DNA of 64,000 nt from Escherichia phage GEP001: sequence record PV173775, one strand, 5' to 3'. Positions 29,538 through 63,881 of this stretch are shown here, one piece after another; the first letter of the stretch is position 1; each line of letters opens with the position of its first letter. The position numbers and the translations under genes are program-made. The notes under the pieces were generated by a model, which ran no database searches, was not told where the DNA came from, and saw only the letters and a list, made by a program, of their open reading frames with translations.

Positions 29538-29591
29538 GTTTACAAGTCCCTCGTGTTGTGTTATAGTAGACTTACTGACATAACATGAGGA
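29538..29591 (+). promoter_or_regulatory. early promoter cassette upstream of alc (GTTTAC / TATAGT) with conserved leader
   Basis: Near-identical to 45212-45265. Confidence 0.6.
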
Positions 29592-41057: not shown

Positions 41058-43151
41058 ATGGAACTCATTACAGAATTATTTGACGAAGATACTACTCTTC
41101 CGATTACAAACTTAAATCCAAAGAAGAAAATACCGCAAATTTTTTCAGTTCATGTTGATGACGCAATTGAACAACCAGGCTTTCGTTTATGTACCTATAC
41201 ATCTGGAGGTGATACTAACCGTGATTTAAAGATGGGCGATAAAATGATGCATATTGTTCCTTTTACATTAACTGCTAAAGGTTCAATTGCTAAATTAAAA
41301 GGTCTCGGTCCAAGCCCAATTAATTACATCAATTCAGTTTTTACTGTTGCAATGCAGACGATGCGCCAGTATAAAATTGATGCCTGTATGCTTCGTATTC
41401 TTAAGTCTAAAACTGCTGGTCAAGCTCGACAAATTCAAGTTATTGCTGATAGACTTATCCGTAGTCGTTCAGGCGGCAGATACGTCCTTCTTAAGGAACT
41501 CTGGGATTACGATAAAAAGTATGCATATATTCTTATACATCGCAAAAATGTATCACTAGAAGACATTCCAGGAGTTCCAGAAATTAGTACCGAGCTCTTT
41601 ACTAAAGTTGAATCGAAGGTCGGCGATGTTTATATCAATAAAGATACTGGAGCTCAAGTAACTAAAAATGAGGCAATTGCAGCATCTATTGCGCAAGAAA
41701 ATGATAAACGTTCTGACCAAGCTGTAATCGTTAAAGTTAAAATTTCCCGTAGAGCAATTGCACAAAGTCAGTCATTGGAATCTTCTAGATTTGAAAGTGA
41801 ATTATTCCAGAAATATGAATCTACCGCAGCTAATTTCAATAAACCTGCTACAGCTCCTTTAATTCCCGAAGCAGAAGAAATGAAGCTTGGAATTAATTCA
41901 TTAGCTTCTAAAACTAAGGCAGCAAAAATTATTGCCGAAGGAACCGCAGATGAACTTCACTATGACTATAAATTCTTTTCAAAAAGTGATGTTAATGAAG
42001 TTTCTGAAAAAATTAAAGATGTAATTCTTAATGCGATTAAAAATGAACCAACTACTTCAATAAAATGTTTAGAGAAGTATGCAGCAGCTATTAATAAATT
42101 CTTTGAAGAATATAAAGATACTTGGCTTGATAAACATAATAAAACTCGTAAAGGGCAGCCAGATGAAGTCTGGGAAGAAATAACTAAAAATTCCTGGAAC
42201 GCAGCAAAAACTAAATTCCTCAAACGAATGATTTATAGCTTTTCTGGAATTGGTGCAGGTCCAATGATTGATATTACTATTGCCCGTGATGGTTCTAAAT
42301 ATACTCCATCACAAAAGCGCGGCATTAGAGAGTATTGTGGTTCAGGATATACTGACATCAATAATCTTCTTTTGGGTCGTTACAATCCAGAACGATATGA
42401 TGTAATGAGTGAAAAAGAAATTGAATCTGCGATAAATAATTTAGATTCAGCTTTTGAAAATGGTGACCGTATACCAGAAGGCATTACAGTTTATCGTGCT
42501 CAAAGTATGACTGCTCCTATATACGAAGCGCTAGTTAAAAATAAAGTGTTCTATTTCAGAAATTTTGTATCTACTTCTTTAACTCCTATCATTTTTGGAC
42601 GTTTTGGAATTACACATGCTGGTATCGGTCTTTTAGAACCAGAAGCTCGTAATGAATTAACAGTTGATAAAAATGAAGAAGGAATAACTATTAATCCAAA
42701 CGAAATAAGAGCGTATAAAGAAAATCCTGAATACGTTAAAGTTCAAATAGGATGGGCAATTGATGGAGCTCATAAAGTTAATGTTGTATATCCAGGAAGT
42801 CTCGGAATAGCAACAGAAGCTGAAGTAATTCTACCACGCGGATTGATGGTCAAAGTTAATAAAATAACTGATGCTTCTAATAATGACGGAACAACATCTA
42901 ATAATACAAAACTCATTCAAGCTGAAGTTATGACTACGGAAGAACTCACCGAATCAGTCATTTATGACGGTGACCGTCTAATGGAAACCGGCGAAGTAGT
43001 TGCAATGACAGGTGATATTGAAATAGAAGACAGAGTTGACTTTGCATCATTTGTTTCATCAAATGTTAAACAGAAAGCAGAATCATCTCTCGGAATTATT
43101 GCGTCTTGCATAGATATTACAAACATGCCTTACAAGTTCGTTCAAGGATAA
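41058..43151 (+). CDS. alt: capsid-packaged ADP-ribosyltransferase Alt (697 aa)
   Basis: N-terminus MELITELFDEDTTLPITNL and body match recalled T4 Alt; R/STS/EAE-type motifs (YRAQ, FVSTSL, EAEVIL); late promoter upstream. Confidence 0.9.
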   Translation: MELITELFDEDTTLPITNLNPKKKIPQIFSVHVDDAIEQPGFRLCTYTSGGDTNRDLKMGDKMMHIVPFTLTAKGSIAKLKGLGPSPINYINSVFTVAMQTMRQYKIDACMLRILKSKTAGQARQIQVIADRLIRSRSGGRYVLLKELWDYDKKYAYILIHRKNVSLEDIPGVPEISTELFTKVESKVGDVYINKDTGAQVTKNEAIAASIAQENDKRSDQAVIVKVKISRRAIAQSQSLESSRFESELFQKYESTAANFNKPATAPLIPEAEEMKLGINSLASKTKAAKIIAEGTADELHYDYKFFSKSDVNEVSEKIKDVILNAIKNEPTTSIKCLEKYAAAINKFFEEYKDTWLDKHNKTRKGQPDEVWEEITKNSWNAAKTKFLKRMIYSFSGIGAGPMIDITIARDGSKYTPSQKRGIREYCGSGYTDINNLLLGRYNPERYDVMSEKEIESAINNLDSAFENGDRIPEGITVYRAQSMTAPIYEALVKNKVFYFRNFVSTSLTPIIFGRFGITHAGIGLLEPEARNELTVDKNEEGITINPNEIRAYKENPEYVKVQIGWAIDGAHKVNVVYPGSLGIATEAEVILPRGLMVKVNKITDASNNDGTTSNNTKLIQAEVMTTEELTESVIYDGDRLMETGEVVAMTGDIEIEDRVDFASFVSSNVKQKAESSLGIIASCIDITNMPYKFVQG

Positions 43152-43154
43152 ATC

Positions 43155-45212
43155 ATGGAACTTATTACAGAATTATTTGACGGCGCTTCGGCGCCGGTTG
43201 TTAACTTAAATCCTAAGCATAAAATACCTCAAATTTTTGCTATTCAAGCCGGTGAAGAAAGCGTGCTTCCTGGATTTAGATTTTGTACATACACCTCTGG
43301 CGGTGATACAAATAAAAACGTTAAGCCAGGCGATAAAATGATGCATATCGTAATGATAGGTGTTAATGAGAAACTATCATTAGTTAAACTTAAAAACTTA
43401 GGTGGAAATCCAATTGGTGTCATTAATGCGGTTTTTGATACTGCTCTTCAGACAATGAAACAGTACAAAATTGACGCATGCTTATTCCGCGTACTAAAGA
43501 GTAAAACAAATGGCGCAGCTCGACAAATTCAAGTTATTGCTGACCGTTTAGTACGTACTAAAGGAGCAGGTCGATATGTTCTTTTAAAAGAAATCTGGGA
43601 TTACGATAAAAAGTACGCATATATTATGGTTTACCGTAAAAATGCTAATTTAGAAGACATTCCAGGTGTACCTCCTATTTCAACTGAGTTATTCACAAAA
43701 GTTGAATCAAAGGTTGGTGATGTTTATGTAGATGTTAAAACAGGTAATGCTGTTCCTAAAGCTGTTGCTGTTGCTGCTTCTATTGCTTTAGAAAATGATA
43801 AGCGCACGGATCAAGCTGTTATTCAGAAAACTAAAATTAGTCGTCGATTAGCAGCACAAGCTCAATACTCTACTGTCGATGCTTCACTTCAGGGTGATAG
43901 CTTCGCTGCTAAGAAATATCAAGAGTTTGAATCTAAAGTTCCGGTATATAAAGCAGAAGGACCAATGAACTCCGGCGTTATTCAGGTTGGTTCAAACTTC
44001 AGCAAAGGAGCTATCGGTGGTATGAGAAGTGCTTCTCGTTTTAAATCTAATGATTATGAACTAGAAAGCTTCCGAAATCATATTGCATTGGCTCATGCAC
44101 GTTTACGTGATCCATCTATCAAGTTACAGAGCGATATAACATATCAAGGTTCTCAAGAATATTTAAAGAATAAAGAATTTTTTGATTATAAAACTGATAA
44201 AATTTTAAGCGATCTTGCTGACATTAATATTTCTAATAGCTTTGATGTTATTAAGAAAATTGTCAATGATTTAGTTAAAGGTTCTAAAGCCACACCAGAT
44301 GAAAAGGTAGCTATTGTTCAATTTGTCATGAATGGCATTTATAAATTGATTAATGAGTCTGCTTCTCAAGCGTATGAATATGCAAGTACTGAAGTACCCC
44401 CAAAAGGATTAACTCAAGCTGAGTCTGATGTAATTGAAGATTATTGCGCAGATTCATATGTTGAAATGAACTCGTTCCTTTTAGGTAAACCAGATTCTAC
44501 TCGTGAAGAATATATGGAACGAGCTATTAAACACATCGAGACAATGGATTCTGCTTTTGCCAAAGGATCAGTTCTTCCTCCAGGAACTACGCTTTACCGT
44601 GGCCAAGAAGTTACCTTTAAAACTTTACGTCATAATATTGAAAATAAAATGTTCTATTTTAAGAACTTCGTATCCACATCGCTTAAACCAAATATCTTCG
44701 GTGAGTATGGTAAAAACTATATGGCCCTAGATGATTCCGGCACAGTATTTTCTGGTGAAGGAGAAGGTTCAGTTGATGCTGAAGATTTGATGCATATGGG
44801 CAGTCATTCTGCGTATGCCAATGAAGATGCTGAAACTAGCGTTGGTATGGTAATTAAAGGAGCTGAGCGAATCAAAGTTATCGTTCCAGGTCATTTATCA
44901 GGATTTCCATCAGAAGCTGAAGTTATTTTACCGCGTGGAATTTTGCTGAAGATTAATAAAGTGAGTACGTACATGATGAAAGAAACTGCTTATAACAAGT
45001 ATCTAATCGAAGGCACAATCGTTCCTCCTTCTGAACAATTAGAAGAATCGGTATATGATGGTGACCATCTGATGGAAACTGGTGAAGTTCGTCCAATGAC
45101 TGGATTTAACCAATTCCTTGTAGAAGAATCAAAAGAAGAGGAAAACGAAGTTTCTCAAATCTTGGCTTCTTTGGTTAACATCAACGGAATGTCTAAAAAG
45201 TTCAAGATGTAG
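43155..45212 (+). CDS. second Alt-like ADP-ribosyltransferase paralogue (685 aa) with divergent central region
   Basis: Shares Alt N-terminal region and C-terminal catalytic motifs (YRGQ, FVSTSL, EAEVIL) but central ~250 aa differ. Confidence 0.8.
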   Translation: MELITELFDGASAPVVNLNPKHKIPQIFAIQAGEESVLPGFRFCTYTSGGDTNKNVKPGDKMMHIVMIGVNEKLSLVKLKNLGGNPIGVINAVFDTALQTMKQYKIDACLFRVLKSKTNGAARQIQVIADRLVRTKGAGRYVLLKEIWDYDKKYAYIMVYRKNANLEDIPGVPPISTELFTKVESKVGDVYVDVKTGNAVPKAVAVAASIALENDKRTDQAVIQKTKISRRLAAQAQYSTVDASLQGDSFAAKKYQEFESKVPVYKAEGPMNSGVIQVGSNFSKGAIGGMRSASRFKSNDYELESFRNHIALAHARLRDPSIKLQSDITYQGSQEYLKNKEFFDYKTDKILSDLADINISNSFDVIKKIVNDLVKGSKATPDEKVAIVQFVMNGIYKLINESASQAYEYASTEVPPKGLTQAESDVIEDYCADSYVEMNSFLLGKPDSTREEYMERAIKHIETMDSAFAKGSVLPPGTTLYRGQEVTFKTLRHNIENKMFYFKNFVSTSLKPNIFGEYGKNYMALDDSGTVFSGEGEGSVDAEDLMHMGSHSAYANEDAETSVGMVIKGAERIKVIVPGHLSGFPSEAEVILPRGILLKINKVSTYMMKETAYNKYLIEGTIVPPSEQLEESVYDGDHLMETGEVRPMTGFNQFLVEESKEEENEVSQILASLVNINGMSKKFKM

Positions 45213-45265
45213 TTTACAAGTCCCTCGTGTTGTGTTATAGTAATTTTACTTACATAACATGAGGA
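45212..45265 (+). promoter_or_regulatory. early promoter cassette (copy of 29538-29591)
   Basis: 31 nt identical to 29538-29568 plus similar leader and GAGGA site. Confidence 0.6.
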
Positions 45266-58082: not shown

Positions 58083-59087
58083 ATGTTTAAAAAGTATAGC
58101 AGTCTTGAAAATCATTACAATTCTAAATTCATTGAAAAACTTTATAGTTTAGGATTGACTGGCGGCGAATGGGTAGCTCGCGAAAAGATTCACGGTACAA
58201 ACTTTTCATTGATTATTGAGCGTGATAAAGCAACTTGTGCTAAACGTACTGGACCGATTCTTCCTGCTGAAGATTTCTTTGGGTATGAAATTATTCTAAA
58301 GAATTATACTGATTCCATTAAAGCAGTACAAGATATTATGGAAACTTCAGCAGTTGTATCTTATCAAGTCTTTGGCGAATTCGCTGGACCTGGTATTCAG
58401 AAGAATGTCGATTATGGCGATAAAGATTTTTATGTATTTGACATTATTGTTACTACCGAAAGTGGTGATGTGACTTATGTCGATGATTATATGATGGAAT
58501 CATTCTGTAATACATTTAAATTTAAAATGGCTCCACTTTTAGGTCGCGGTAAATTTGAAGAGCTTATTAAATTGCCAAATGATTTAGATTCTGTCGTTCA
58601 AGATTATAATTTTACAGTAGACCATGCTGGATTAGTTGATGCAAATAAATGCGTTTGGAATGCCGAAGCAAAAGGCGAAGTATTTACCGCTGAAGGTTAT
58701 GTATTGAAACCTTGTTATCCTTCTTGGATGCCTAACGGAAATCGTGTAGCTATTAAATGCAAGAACTCTAAATTTAGTGAAAAGAAAAAGTCTGATAAGC
58801 CTATTAAAGCTAAAGTTGAGCTGTCAGAAGCTGATAATAAATTGCTGGGAATTTTAGCTTGCTACGTTACACTGAACCGAGTAAATAACGTTATTTCTAA
58901 AATTGGCGAAATTGGTCCAAAGGATTTTGGAAAGGTGATGGGACTAACTGTTCAAGATATTTTGGAAGAAACTTCTCGTGAAGGTATTACTTTAACTCAA
59001 GCGGATAATCCTTCTTTGATTAAGAAGGAATTAGTTAAAATGGTACAAGATGTACTTCGTCCGGCTTGGATTGAATTAGTGAGTTAA
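58083..59087 (+). CDS. rnlB: RNA ligase 2 (334 aa)
   Basis: Sequence [24 protein letters not shown]...KIHGTNFS matches recalled T4 Rnl2 with KxHG adenylation motif. Confidence 0.9.
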
Positions 59088-59093
59088 ATAAAA

Positions 59094-59120
59094 AGGGACC
59101 GAAAGGTCCCTTTGTTTTAT
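59094..59120. terminator. bidirectional terminator hairpin between convergent rnlB and gene 24
   Basis: agggacc-gaaa-ggtccct flanked by A-run and T-run; same stem as 45570. Confidence 0.65.
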
Positions 59121-60400
59121 TCATCAACGATAATTTTTGGTAGCTTAACACCCAATAAAACAGACAAATCTGAACGACCCGCCATTTTATCCATGTCTCC
59201 ACCATCAATTATTCTTGCTTCTTTTTCATCTTTTGCTACAGTGTAAGGATTTGCAGATAAAGCATATCTAACCAATAAACCGATAGATGGCTGCAAACTT
59301 TCTGGATCAACTACAACTTTAAATGCACCTACATGTTCAGGGTCATCTAAGTCAAGACCTTCTGTATACGGAGCATAGAAAATTGATCCAACAATTTCTT
59401 TTTCGCCAATATTTTCTACCACACCGACGATTACATAATCTAATGGGCTGTTAGTATCGCAATAAAGCGGTAAACCATTAGCTAAAAACCCGTAGGCATT
59501 TTGTGAAAGATATTTATCATCTTCTGGTTTATGTTTTAACCAACCTGATGCAGCAAGAATCGCAGCAGCACGAGCTGAAGCAACACAGAACGTTGCTGTA
59601 TAAGTTGATTCTTTTTGGATATGTGAAACCATTTCACATACCATTCGGTATAATGAACGACCAGCTTCAGGTGCAGATGCATAGCTCAAATCAATGAATC
59701 CAGTGTCAGTAATTCCTGTAACTTTATATCGTTTTGATACTGTAATCAAAGACTGTAGAATATCTTTATTGATTTCATCCGCCATTTCAGTTGCAAGCAA
59801 ATCTTCCAAGAAATTAGGAGCATCGAATCCATTTGCTTCTAAATCTTGTGCTAATTCAACTGTGATGCCAGTTTTAAGTTTACGAGATTTAACTGCGGTT
59901 TGCCATTTATTAATCTGGAATCTAGCATCCGCAATTTCGCTATCAGAGCTTTCAAATTTGCTCGTTGACGCTGCGTCAGAAAATAGACGAACCTTTAAAA
60001 GAACAATTGCAATCTGAAGAGCTAATTCTAAATCGCTTTCTTCAATAGTAGCAAATGGTGTATCTTCTAATACTTTATAGACGATATTATTGTATTTGAA
60101 TAAATCGCCTTTATTGAGAGTTAATTTAGACTCTTCTGTTAATTCTGTGATTTGTTCTCGGTCTACATATCCAGCTTCGCCAGCGTAAGTAGCACCAGTT
60201 TTAAATGTAAATTCGTTATCTGGATTAAGGTATTTGATACCATAAAAAGCAGCAACAGGTTGATTAGTTCTTTGCGTTGCTACAATGTCAGAATATATTA
60301 ATTTAGTGGTAGCGCGAGTCAAAGCAACGAGATTTGGGCGACCGATTGAGTTGCTATTCGTTGTGGTTGATTCGCGCAGAAGTTCGTTGATTTTAGCCAT
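59117..60400 (-). CDS. 24: capsid vertex protein gp24 (427 aa)
   Basis: Size identical to T4 gp24; similarity to gp23 fold region; late promoter upstream. Confidence 0.9.
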   Translation of the reverse strand: MAKINELLRESTTTNSNSIGRPNLVALTRATTKLIYSDIVATQRTNQPVAAFYGIKYLNPDNEFTFKTGATYAGEAGYVDREQITELTEESKLTLNKGDLFKYNNIVYKVLEDTPFATIEESDLELALQIAIVLLKVRLFSDAASTSKFESSDSEIADARFQINKWQTAVKSRKLKTGITVELAQDLEANGFDAPNFLEDLLATEMADEINKDILQSLITVSKRYKVTGITDTGFIDLSYASAPEAGRSLYRMVCEMVSHIQKESTYTATFCVASARAAAILAASGWLKHKPEDDKYLSQNAYGFLANGLPLYCDTNSPLDYVIVGVVENIGEKEIVGSIFYAPYTEGLDLDDPEHVGAFKVVVDPESLQPSIGLLVRYALSANPYTVAKDEKEARIIDGGDMDKMAGRSDLSVLLGVKLPKIIVDE

Positions 60401-60428
60401 TGCGCTTTCCTTGTTGAGAGTATATGTT

Positions 60429-60436
60429 TATTTATA
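60429..60436 (-). promoter_or_regulatory. late promoter TATAAATA for gene 24
   Basis: Exact match about 30 nt upstream of gene 24 start. Confidence 0.65.
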
Positions 60437-60442
60437 AAAGTT

Positions 60443-60472
60443 GTTTACAGCAAGGTTATCACATGTTACTAT
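60443..60472 (+). promoter_or_regulatory. early promoter for the 88-aa ORF between genes 23 and 24
   Basis: GTTTAC, 18-nt spacer, TGtTACTAT. Confidence 0.6.
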
Positions 60473-60502
60473 AGACCTATCAAAAACATGAGGAGATTAA
60501 AA

Positions 60503-60769
60503 ATGAACAAGTTAAACTTTATTCGTACTACTCTGTCCGCTCTTGATAAAGACATCAAAGCCCTGGTAGAAAAATATGGTTCCAATCCTAACGGTAATGC
60601 AGTGAATGCCCTAGTTAAGAAATATGAAACCATGGCTTATGCTACTGACTTCTGGTGGAACGGTGAATATTCTACCCATACCAAAGACAAATCTGGTAAC
60701 TGGCTGAAAATCCAAGAAAATCGTATTGACTTCCGTGACATCATCAACCGTCGAGTTAAGATTGCGTAG
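60503..60769 (+). CDS. hypothetical early protein, 88 aa, between head genes 23 and 24
   Basis: ORF with GAGGAG site and early promoter 60443-60472; opposite strand to flanking late genes. Confidence 0.65.
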   Translation: MNKLNFIRTTLSALDKDIKALVEKYGSNPNGNAVNALVKKYETMAYATDFWWNGEYSTHTKDKSGNWLKIQENRIDFRDIINRRVKIA

Positions 60770-60784
60770 TATAGAAACAAGAAT

Positions 60785-60802
60785 GGGAGACCGAAGTCTC
60801 CC
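60785..60802. terminator. hairpin between convergent ORF 60503-60769 and gene 23 (gggagac-cgaa-gtctccc)
   Basis: Perfect 7-bp stem. Confidence 0.5.
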
Positions 60803-60818
60803 ATAATAAGGTTATATC

Positions 60819-62384
60819 TTAGATACCTTTAACATATACACGGCGGAAGTAAGCGTTTTTACCAAGGCTATTCAGAATAGAAGGCATACCGCTCTGGATG
60901 CGAGAAGCCGGAGCCTGAGCAGCGGATTCTGCAAATGGGTTGATACCGATACCGTAACGAGTTTTGAATCCCATTACTGGTTGGAAGTTCTTCGGATCAG
61001 AACCACGCAGCGGAGTCAGAGCTACATATGGAGCATAGTAAATACCAGCATCCATTTCGTTCGGACCTTTATAACCTACAGTGAAATAATCCTGTTTAGC
61101 ATACTGGTCGATATATACACGGTATTTACCACCCAGAACACCAGCAAATACTGACTTGGTAGTATCAGTGTTAAAGCCGGTAGCCAGACCCTGTGCAGCA
61201 TAAGAAATGCCAGTATCAACTGAAGCCAGAACGTTAACTACGTTACGGGAAGCGATAATGAAGTTACCTTCACCACGACCGGTCTGACGAGCAATTTCAA
61301 CTGCTTCTTTGTCAATCTGGAACAACAGAGCTTTAAAGGATTCACCCGCCCAGCGAGCACCACGAATATCAATCGGATCCTGGAAGTCAAATACACCAGC
61401 TTTAGAACCCGGAGTCAGGGTCATACCAGATTTACCAACCTGAGCTGAGTAGTTAATCCAATCAACAACTTCACGGTTGATTTCCAGCATGATTTCGGTA
61501 GCCAGAATACCAGACAGTTCAGCATCAGCATCCATACCGTGAACAGCGCGGAGGTCTTGTGCTAATTCGATAGAGTAAGCAGCTTTCAGCTGACGAGATT
61601 TAGCTTCGATAACTTGTTTATCGATACGGAAGCCCATTTCATTCCATGGGTTATCGGTAGAACCGTTGAAACCTTCCTGGAGTTCAGCGATAGAAGTAGC
61701 CATACCTTCAGCGATTTCTACCAATGCACCAGCTTCCATTTGTTTCTTAATTTCAGCATCTAATTTAGCTGCATCAGTTGCGCTTGCACTAATTGTTACT
61801 TGAGCAGAAGCCTGCAGATACACAGTACCAGTGTCCTGGAAGAAGTGAGTATAGATATCACCTACTGTGGTTTCTGTGCTAGCAGCCAGAGCCGGGAATT
61901 TCTTAGCAGCGCCCTGACCAGAGAACATTGCATCTGGACCATACATTGGGTGGAATGCTTCTTTAGCGCCGGCAGCGATTGGGTCTTTACCATATACTGC
62001 GCGCAGTGCGAATACCTGACCGGTCGGGCTGTTCATCGGCTGAACACCGCAAATATCGAAAGCAATCAGGTTAGGAATAGCACGACGTACCATACCCATA
62101 ACAGCTGGGCCAATCTGAGTTACTGCGCCAGAAGTCTGACCAGCAGCGATGTTAGTAGCGTTGTAACCGTGGTCACCACCGATTTCAGCTTCTGTTAAGA
62201 AAGAACCGAATGCCTGAGCAATTTTTTCGTCTTTGTACTCTGGAGCTGTCTGGAAATCTTTTTCCTGGTTTTCAAAGATTTTAGCGATAATCGCTTGTTT
62301 GCTATTAGCAATTTCCGGTAAACCTTCACCTTCCAGTAATGGCTTCCATTTGTTCAAAAGTTCAGCTTTAGTTTTGATAGTCAT
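60819..62384 (-). CDS. 23: major capsid protein gp23 (521 aa)
   Basis: Size identical to T4 gp23; higher GC/codon bias typical of gene 23. Confidence 0.95.
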   Translation of the reverse strand: MTIKTKAELLNKWKPLLEGEGLPEIANSKQAIIAKIFENQEKDFQTAPEYKDEKIAQAFGSFLTEAEIGGDHGYNATNIAAGQTSGAVTQIGPAVMGMVRRAIPNLIAFDICGVQPMNSPTGQVFALRAVYGKDPIAAGAKEAFHPMYGPDAMFSGQGAAKKFPALAASTETTVGDIYTHFFQDTGTVYLQASAQVTISASATDAAKLDAEIKKQMEAGALVEIAEGMATSIAELQEGFNGSTDNPWNEMGFRIDKQVIEAKSRQLKAAYSIELAQDLRAVHGMDADAELSGILATEIMLEINREVVDWINYSAQVGKSGMTLTPGSKAGVFDFQDPIDIRGARWAGESFKALLFQIDKEAVEIARQTGRGEGNFIIASRNVVNVLASVDTGISYAAQGLATGFNTDTTKSVFAGVLGGKYRVYIDQYAKQDYFTVGYKGPNEMDAGIYYAPYVALTPLRGSDPKNFQPVMGFKTRYGIGINPFAESAAQAPASRIQSGMPSILNSLGKNAYFRRVYVKGI

Positions 62385-62402: not shown

Positions 62403-63212
62403 TTAGAAACGAGATGCGACTTTCGCATATACACTTACAATATCTTCTGCACCAGGTGCAGCTTTATCTTCTACAGCTTCAGTGACGAAATTCAGTCCGG
62501 CTGCTTCAGTATCAGGAGTATTTATACCCTCAGTAATAGTGCTTTCATCTTTATTAGACTTCTTCACCATTTCTACGATGGCACTCAATTTATTTGAGAA
62601 TTCATCTGAATAATCCATACCTTCGACCAGAGCAGAGACTTTTTCTTTTTGAGACTCAGTCAGATCTTTAGTACTTTCGCTCAATGCCACTTCACGCTGC
62701 ACATAATTGATATATGCGTCGCGCATATTGAGTTCTTCGAACAGACGAGCTGATTCTTCTTTATGTTCTTGCAGCTCTTCTTCCATTTCAGCCACAACAT
62801 CAACTGATTCTTCTGGAACAACAACGTTGTGTTCAACAAAGAGCTCTTTTAATCCACCAAGCATGGATTCAAACAGTTCGGCTTTGATGCCTTTATCAAC
62901 TGCTAATTTATTTTCAGCGAGCCATTCTTTCGCAAGATGGTCAATGAATTTAGAAGCTTGCTCAGCGATTTTCTTCTCAGCTTTTTCTTCGGCTTCTTCT
63001 TTATTTTTTTCTACTTCTTCTTCTGCTTTTTCAGCAATTTTAGCGATATGAGATTCAGCTAATTTAACGGCGTGCTGCTTGACGGTAGCTTCGAATACAG
63101 TGCCGAAAGTTTCTTTTGCTTCCGGAGAAATATTAACTGATTCGAAAATACTATCAAGAGCAACGGAAGCATCAATTTTTTGCGCTTCAGCAATCAGTTG
63201 TTCTTTAAGCAT
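62403..63212 (-). CDS. 22: prohead core scaffold protein gp22 (269 aa)
   Basis: Size identical to T4 gp22; acidic coiled-coil-rich. Confidence 0.9.
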   Translation of the reverse strand: MLKEQLIAEAQKIDASVALDSIFESVNISPEAKETFGTVFEATVKQHAVKLAESHIAKIAEKAEEEVEKNKEEAEEKAEKKIAEQASKFIDHLAKEWLAENKLAVDKGIKAELFESMLGGLKELFVEHNVVVPEESVDVVAEMEEELQEHKEESARLFEELNMRDAYINYVQREVALSESTKDLTESQKEKVSALVEGMDYSDEFSNKLSAIVEMVKKSNKDESTITEGINTPDTEAAGLNFVTEAVEDKAAPGAEDIVSVYAKVASRF

Positions 63213-63239: not shown

Positions 63240-63247
63240 TATTTATA
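63240..63247 (-). promoter_or_regulatory. late promoter TATAAATA for gene 22 (inside 3' end of gene 21)
   Basis: Exact match about 30 nt upstream of gene 22 start. Confidence 0.6.
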
Positions 63248-63881
63248 ACGCTTTTTTCATGGCCTCTGCGAGAGCCATATAGGCGTCATCGGCACTTGTA
63301 TCGGCTTCCGCCGTCTGTGATTCGGTAATTTCCTTAGGAGTTACCCATGCATCTGGAGCACTTGGACCCCATACTGCATCAACACCTACAGTTAATTTGA
63401 ATCCTTCGTTTACGATACGATAACCTTTATTTGTGTCAGTCAATGAACCTAATCCACGAGAAGAAACTCCTGGAATCCATCCGGCACGAATATTAGCTGC
63501 TAATTTATCTCCAGGACCGTGGTCACCTTCAATAACACGAGCTCGTCCGTATACGTCATTTCCTTTCCACCACATATCTTCTATAATGATAGCGGCTTGC
63601 ATCGGGTCAACATTAGCGCGTGGAGGATGATTTAATTCTCCGAGAGCTTGTTTAGTTAAAACTTGCTCATTAATATAGTCTTTTACCGCTTTTTCTAATA
63701 TGCGTTTTGGATAAAGACGTTTATTTCTATTGACGACTTCTGCTTGCATGAATATTCCTTCGATGTATAAACCCGGTTTTAAACCTAAGTCTTTTCCATC
63801 GTGGGATTCAAGCATTGGCACACCATCAATAATTTCGCCAGGTTGACCCCAAGTTTCAATTAGTAATTGGGGTTCATTCAT
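63243..63881 (-). CDS. 21: prohead core protease gp21 (212 aa)
   Basis: Size identical to T4 gp21; position. Confidence 0.9.
   Translation of the reverse strand: MNEPQLLIETWGQPGEIIDGVPMLESHDGKDLGLKPGLYIEGIFMQAEVVNRNKRLYPKRILEKAVKDYINEQVLTKQALGELNHPPRANVDPMQAAIIIEDMWWKGNDVYGRARVIEGDHGPGDKLAANIRAGWIPGVSSRGLGSLTDTNKGYRIVNEGFKLTVGVDAVWGPSAPDAWVTPKEITESQTAEADTSADDAYMALAEAMKKAL

Follow-up and report, generated by a model that had tools for sequence, protein, structure and literature searches.

A small early-type gene between capsid genes 24 and 23 of T-even phages, exchanged across genera with its whole intergenic region

The 418-bp region between the capsid genes 24 and 23 of Escherichia phage GEP001 carries an 88-aa open reading frame (ORF) on the strand opposite to both genes, and the whole region was imported from a JS98-like (Dhakavirus-type) source into a T4-type capsid block. 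Our analysis covered a stretch of 64,000 nucleotides (nt) of sequence record PV173775, hereafter the window, in which the region of interest matches Tequatrovirus vB_EcoM-G28 and phages JE01, EP01 and KIT06 at 100% identity; the phage is a T4-like Tequatrovirus. The promoter, short leader, strong ribosome site, 88-codon gene and hairpin probably constitute a self-contained early transcription unit that fills the space between the two capsid genes, and a mobile early accessory module with a dispensable product is the overall explanation that we favour, with reasonable but far from full confidence. The gene itself is not new, being already catalogued as an annotated hypothetical protein of family PHROG 6003; the new content is the clean exchange of the whole intergenic region across genera, as read from sequence comparison, and a tandem link with SegD-type genes. 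The features of the locus, in window coordinates, are as follows.

58083–59087, plus strand: rnlB (ORF list, G28 annotation)
59117–60400, minus strand: gene 24, capsid vertex protein, left flank and putative recombination arm (ORF list, annotation of the identical G28, T4-type sequence up to the start codon)
60401–60818, no strand: gene 24–gene 23 intergenic region, 418 bp, an imported JS98-type module (identity profiles)
60436..60429, minus strand: gene 24 late promoter TATAAATA (exact match; back to back with the early promoter)
60443–60472, plus strand: T4-type early (sigma-70) promoter (promoter scan match)
60443–60449, plus strand: −35 element GTTTAC(A) (TTTACA at 60444–60449 in the sigma-70 register)
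60464–60472, plus strand: extended −10 element TGtTACTAT (TG at 60464–60465, TACTAT at 60467–60472)
60490–60495, plus strand: Shine-Dalgarno GAGGAG (read from the sequence; 7 nt 5′ of the ATG)
60503–60769, plus strand: 88-aa ORF, stop codon counted in the coordinates, PHROG 6003 (protein starts MNKLNFIRTTLSAL; TAG at 60767–60769)
60783–60804, both strands: 9-bp G+C-rich hairpin (terminator scan and folding)
60819–62384, minus strand: gene 23, major capsid protein, right flank and putative recombination arm (ORF list, annotation, T4-type sequence from the stop codon onward)
62403–63212, minus strand: gene 22 (ORF list, annotation)
63243–63881, minus strand: gene 21 (ORF list, annotation)

This layout agrees with the original prediction, which had placed genes 24 and 23 on the minus strand behind late promoters, with a GAGGAG ribosome site and an 88-aa plus-strand ORF between them: the coordinates match, the gene 24 late promoter is exact, and both the ribosome site and the ORF are present. 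The late promoter is kept in all aligned phages, including those in which the space between the two genes is empty. The ORF lies about 100 nt from the start of gene 24. A mechanically made ORF list begins it at an in-frame ATG at 60488, giving 93 aa; that ATG sits within the ribosome site and is not kept in other alleles.

The ORF is a real protein-coding gene under purifying selection. Its product matches the PHROG 6003 profile with an E value of 5.8e-50 (residues 1–88 against profile positions 1–88 of 90), and its exact sequence is in GenBank as hypothetical protein G28 gp231, itself a member of PHROG 6003 together with JS98 gp173 (99% identical) and VR7 ORF190c. A tblastn search found the ORF in 237 phage records. 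Pairwise dN/dS is 0.03–0.13 at an unsaturated dS of 0.16–0.47 and stays below 0.45 at larger distances. Alleles at only 30–37% identity keep the length (84–93 aa) and an invariant core of F6, L11, L14, L21, G26, N30-G31-N32-A33, A45, W51, Q71 and I80. The prediction that the ORF is unrelated to GIY-YIG enzymes was borne out, with a BLASTP E value of 2.7 against T4 SegD and no Pfam match above noise; this lack of similarity, together with the purifying selection, rules out a degenerate segD remnant.

Database names within the family are all ‘hypothetical’ or ‘uncharacterized’. Literature searches on the locus tags and the PHROG identifier found no paper, and nothing relevant came up on T-even screens for accessory or anti-defence functions. 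Several public labels at this locus are annotation errors: the ORF is called ‘glycosyl hydrolase family 25’ in EAWsc9 and ‘capsid vertex protein’ in JQD51, and in ATK47 gene 24 is labelled ‘homing endonuclease’, while the ORF and the real nuclease gene of that phage are unannotated.

The promoter ahead of the ORF is one of a stereotyped set. The pattern GTTTAC-N14-16-TGNTANNNT has ten matches in the 64-kb window, all on the plus strand, against 0.17 expected from shuffles. Ten plus-strand modules of promoter, leader, Shine-Dalgarno and ATG, at window positions 232, 738, 6296, 21111, 29538, 32841, 36255, 36647, 45212 and 60443, each lie about 30–40 nt 5′ of a start codon, and all ten are built alike: aaaagtt-GTTTACa, TGnTAyTAT, a leader of about 25–35 nt, a GGAG-type ribosome site and aaaATG. 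The site at 60443 is a typical member, its upstream aaaagtt and its leader agreeing with the other nine, and it has the hallmarks of a T4-type early promoter: GTTTAC(A), a spacer of about 17 nt, an extended −10 of the form TGnTAnnaT, an A/T-rich upstream region and a place on the early-gene strand. The original prediction had named GTTTAC and TGtTACTAT as its elements, and both stand; the 18-nt spacer given there becomes the canonical 17 nt when the −35 is read in the TTGACA (sigma-70) register. Across Dhaka-, Gapriver- and Mosigviruses and upstream of T4 segD, the −35 and −10 are kept in position and sequence while the spacer sequence is unrelated, which indicates that constraint acts on the hexamers themselves. 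Transcription would start near 60479. The GAGGAG ribosome site is conserved across alleles, and folding of the leader found no sequestering structure (z = 0.12), ruling out occlusion of the ribosome site by leader structure.

A comparable site, ATTTACA-17 nt-TGATATTAT, lies in T4 at an equal distance from gene 24, upstream of segD, where we located this early-type promoter at L004:1234–1323 (T4 NC_000866 107233–107322). A promoter specific to segD could not be identified according to a 2010 review (PMC2988022). Contrary to that review, our alignment and later omics data suggest that T4 segD is preceded by its own early-type promoter. In these published data the segD RNA falls in the early class and its protein in the middle class, with SegD detected by mass spectrometry (PMC9697503 supplements). 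Because the gene behind the homologous T4 promoter gives an early RNA and a detected protein, early expression of the 88-aa ORF is a well-supported, albeit indirect, prediction. The early class originally assigned to the promoter is thus in keeping with its stereotyped form, its restriction to the early strand, the conservation of its hexamers and the class of the T4 transcript made from the homologous position.

On the 3′ side, a hairpin with a 9-bp stem lies between the two stop codons, 13 nt from that of the ORF and 14 nt from that of gene 23, with fold energies of −15.2 and −16.1 kcal/mol (the latter on the plus strand) and z of about −4 to −5. An identical hairpin is found 3′ of the ORF, or of the ORF and a nuclease gene, in JS98 and the Mosigviruses. 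Its UUCG loop and U-rich tail are present only on the gene 23 strand, the tail on the plus strand being AUAAUAAGG, and a terminator scan makes a call here on the minus strand only. Since the U-tract is confined to that strand, the hairpin is the intrinsic terminator of gene 23 and only possibly also stops the ORF transcript, the 3′ end of which is therefore uncertain. The original prediction that the ORF ends at a hairpin shared with the gene 23 terminus holds for the hairpin itself; its role in terminating the ORF transcript is only a possible one.

The unit occupies one slot in at least four T-even lineages. Besides the window, the ORF is found between genes 24 and 23 in Dhakavirus JS98 (99% amino-acid identity), in the Gapriverviruses VR26, CJ20 and EAWsc9 (about 65%) and in the Mosigviruses Shf125875 and moskry (about 37%), and likewise in LF82-5 and three metagenomic lineages. 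It is encoded there, too, opposite to the capsid genes, and in the named groups it begins roughly 100 nt from the start of gene 24. We measured slot size by searching with 1 kb of each flank only; the flank query matched about 1,200 T-even genomes, and the frequencies of slot states refer to 25 sampled Tequatrovirus records. In 23 of these 25, for example fPS-2, the slot is an empty 83 bp with only the late promoter and the terminator, and the remaining two are PYPS2T, with segD like T4, and G28, with the ORF. That T4 itself carries segD here had been stated in the original prediction and is correct, and its orientation equals that of the ORF. In RB69, the Mosigvirus allele is split by a frameshift, ORF188c and ORF189c (L005:5292–5532) being its N- and C-terminal halves; this is a pseudogene or else reflects a sequencing error. 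Truncated copies of the ORF occur in other phages as well. The many empty slots, the RB69 frameshift and these truncated copies indicate that the gene, although widespread, is dispensable.

One family member lies outside the Tevenvirinae, in Acinetobacter phage ABPH49 (Vequintavirinae; L014:3995–4261). It sits among small hypothetical genes in an early-type region, with G+C-rich hairpins between them, far from the capsid genes. As a separate observation on the flanks, two tandem gene 24 paralogues stand beside the slot in JS98 (L001:1454–4018), VR26 (L003:330–2894) and a metagenomic relative (L018:337–2901), and gene 24 is single copy in the window and in Mosigviruses.

Identity profiles set the intergenic region apart from its flanks. 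Compared with T4, the window is 96–98% identical up to 60449 and again from 60811; compared with JS98, it is 96–100% identical over 60400–60849 and 60–80% identical in genes 24 and 23. In a site-by-site comparison, one junction falls at the start codon of gene 24 and the other at the stop codon of gene 23, and the JS98-type stretch takes in the gene 24 late-promoter leader and the gene 23 terminator. It is this position of a JS98-type intergenic region between T4-type capsid genes that shows the import, and the pattern is the one left by homologous recombination when crossovers fall in the conserved capsid gene ends. Comparison of the 23–24 intergenic region among T-even phages, which had been suggested as a check, thus reveals a variable slot and an import across genera, and the proposal that the ORF is mobile accessory cargo agrees with both the empty slots of most Tequatroviruses and the JS98-like sequence between T4-like capsid genes.

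The link to SegD-type nucleases comes from the Mosigviruses LF82-5 and ATK47. Here, a JS98-type allele of the ORF (93% amino-acid identity) is followed, through TAA-AAT-ATG, by a gene for a 219-aa GIY-YIG protein, an orthologue of SegD with 57% identity to the T4 enzyme (E value of 3e-86). The LF82-5 enzyme scores 20 bits on Pfam SegE_GIY-YIG, below the curated cut-off of 25 bits, yet is a clear orthologue by this alignment; T4 SegD, used as a positive control, scores 27.8 bits. The nuclease gene starts 3 nt past the ORF stop and has no ribosome site of its own. Its insertion point is exact: the ORF stop lies on one side and, on the other, TATAGAAACAAG, the sequence that comes before the hairpin in alleles lacking a nuclease gene. 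Up to a point just 5′ of the ribosome site, LF82-5 is 96–100% identical to nuclease-free Mosigviruses, and this identity resumes about 40 nt into gene 23; between those borders it has a foreign ORF allele and the nuclease gene. As the borders enclose both genes, the two entered the Mosigviruses as one block, replacing a resident allele that is 37% identical.

Because ORF and segD stand in tandem in these phages, they are neighbours, probably in one expression unit, and not alternatives to each other. In the metagenomic lineage L015, an ORF allele lies between a T4-type promoter and a T4-type hairpin, which suggests that the segD-only state of T4 may have arisen from an ORF-bearing slot. About 33–38 records have the Mosigvirus-type nuclease, against the 237 with the ORF, and the ORF list and Pfam gave no endonuclease gene in the slot of the window. 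We infer that a nuclease may have driven the transfers in the lineages of these relatives.

Units of a related kind are known. The PeSL/ORFan cassettes of T4-type phages are small genes of unknown function with their own early promoter and stem-loop that are shuffled as units (Arbiol et al. 2010, PMC2839356; Comeau et al. 2014, PMC4122927), and a few such units are described inside the virion module, nearly always joined to genes without a known function (2010, PMC2839356). The present unit behaves similarly, and its promoter and leader resemble the other early promoters of the genome. Unlike in those cassettes, however, promoter and stem-loop lie here on opposite sides of the ORF and form no composite motif, the stem-loop doubles as the gene 23 terminator with no second flanking PeSL, and conserved ends of genes 24 and 23, in place of repeated PeSLs, serve as exchange arms. 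A scan reported no stem-loop 5′ of the ORF as far back as gene 24, folding showed no significant structure in the leader, and the only hairpin is 3′ of the ORF. Strict PeSL membership is ruled out by this layout, in which a composite motif is missing and the flanks are capsid genes.

Two pairs of repeats were seen elsewhere in the window. A 54-nt stretch of early promoter, leader and ribosome site is repeated on the plus strand at 29538–29591 and 45212–45265, 15.7 kb apart and with 93% identity; these copies could be a recombination pair of the PeSL kind. A 158-nt direct repeat with 72% identity lies at 41100–41257 and 43194–43351, 2.1 kb apart.

The segD locus of T4 resembles the window in slot, orientation, promoter type, distance from gene 24 and the hairpin before the gene 23 stop. 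It differs in its product, since the window encodes an unrelated 88-aa protein and no nuclease, and the tandem arrangement in Mosigviruses places the segD orthologue beside the ORF and not in its stead. The T4 seg endonucleases SegG, SegF, SegE and SegB are associated with marker exclusion, in which flanking markers are co-converted (PMC2988022). LF82-5 and ATK47 are reminiscent of this, a short block of nuclease and adjacent gene having replaced the resident allele with sharp borders in conserved flanks. Here, by contrast, co-conversion is read from sequence mosaics alone, and the adjacent endonuclease is confined to LF82-5 and ATK47.

The protein is predicted to be small and basic, with three helices. 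An AlphaFold2 model based on a 12-sequence alignment (pLDDT 83.6) places helices at residues 3–25, 31–48 and 77–87, with an extended Trp-rich segment between the second and the third. The pI is about 9.6 for the window protein; eight of the nine alleles tested are basic, with a pI of 9.5–9.9 and a net charge of +4 to +7, and the ninth, P0018, has a pI of 8.0. All nine are hydrophilic (negative hydropathy score) and free of cysteine. The conserved basic charge hints weakly at nucleic-acid binding.

The homology and structure searches that had been proposed as a check led to PHROG 6003 only and to no informative relative. Foldseek matched only a family member among viral models and nothing in the PDB, a profile sequence search of the PDB gave a best E value of 0.12, and searches of Pfam, NCBIfam and PADLOC returned noise only. 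An exhaustive profile search of 1.84 billion representative proteins found only a few true relatives, of 84–90 aa; those whose source was checked are encoded by phage genomes, with no named cellular protein among them. The long matches to P0017, an Ig-like repeat protein, and P0020, a repeat protein, were set aside as compositional or repeat artefacts. A third protein, P0021 (160 aa, metagenome), ends in about 35 residues that are an exact stretch of the ORF fused to unrelated sequence and is most likely an assembly chimera.

In the explanation that we favour, host RNA polymerase would start at the early promoter in the first minutes of infection, and, with its short unstructured leader and strong ribosome site, the message would be translated efficiently into a soluble, basic protein of roughly three helices. 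This product would be a dispensable accessory factor that binds a macromolecule of the host or of a rival phage (nucleic acid or an acidic protein) during takeover, with no role in capsid assembly. The unit would spread between T-even genera in mixed infections, the conserved gene 23 and gene 24 ends being where homologous recombination takes place, sometimes with stimulation by an adjoining endonuclease; SegD-type genes would lodge behind the ORF and borrow its promoter and probably its translation.

A narrower reading, to which we give perhaps a minor share of the weight, is that the protein is a specific factor of counter-defence or competition between phages, which inhibits a bacterial immune system or excludes co-infecting phages. 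A small, early, dispensable, fast-evolving and exchanged gene has the profile typical of known T-even anti-defence genes. The ORF would fit it, being small, horizontally exchanged, dispensable and, by inference, expressed early, and its identity of 30–37% between genera against at least 80% in the capsid flanks marks it as fast-evolving; such a role would also explain its patchy, exchanged distribution. The protein nevertheless resembles none that has been characterised, and its locus tags have drawn no literature. Somewhat less likely again is a functional tie of the ORF to the SegD-type nuclease, either as the ‘host gene’ of the homing site, with its 3′ end and terminator junction as the target, or as a partner or cargo that helps the cassette to persist, the window copy being a nuclease-free target or a relic after nuclease loss. 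The exact insertion point, the 3-nt spacing without a ribosome site and the joint import into Mosigviruses speak for such a tie, as does the finding that nuclease-bearing and nuclease-free alleles differ at 5–6 of the 15 nt beside the insertion point, with the rest of the ORF about 94–96% identical. A T4-type promoter and hairpin, moreover, enclose segD in T4 but an allele of the ORF in one of the metagenomic lineages. Most ORF loci have no nuclease gene, though, T4 keeps segD without the ORF, the Vequintavirinae relative has no nuclease neighbour, and T4 SegD reportedly does not home (Sokolov et al. 2018, as cited in PMC9523250).

We consider the two remaining readings very improbable. At the level of DNA or RNA, the ORF would be incidental to an antisense RNA against the gene 23 3′ end or to insulation between two late genes. 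The promoter does aim into gene 23, read-through is plausible because the hairpin has no U-tract on that strand, and in T4 the promoter is present although the ORF is not. Strong purifying selection at the amino-acid level, the retention of protein length and motif at 30% identity, and a strong and conserved ribosome site are all difficult to reconcile with this, and most Tequatroviruses have no promoter here at all. Least credible of all is a helper of capsid assembly, for which only the position within the head gene block argues. The ORF has the opposite orientation and an early, not a late, promoter; most Tequatroviruses lack it and RB69 has a broken copy, yet these phages build normal capsids, and its distant relative lies outside any structural module. 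A mobile accessory module with an early product is thus the reading that we retain.

With these phages included, the 23–24 slot of T-evens has at least four states: empty, ORF alone, segD alone, and ORF with segD. The family is a conserved orphan, so far in phages only, and its protein is a reasonable low-cost candidate for early accessory or anti-defence screens; the locus, in turn, offers a concrete candidate substrate for SegD-type homing. All of this is ordinary T-even biology and leaves current understanding unchanged, with a complete promoter–gene–terminator unit that has crossed genus borders using conserved capsid genes as recombination arms. It is conceivable, if rather doubtful, that the 88-aa gene and the SegD-type nuclease form a natural two-gene mobile unit, in which SegD-type enzymes would in truth home to the ORF 3′ end and its junction with the terminator, and the ORF product, perhaps acting in anti-defence or exclusion, might confer the benefit behind the spread of the unit across four T-even genera. 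Were this so, the reported failure of T4 SegD to home could be explained by tests in phages that lack the ORF.
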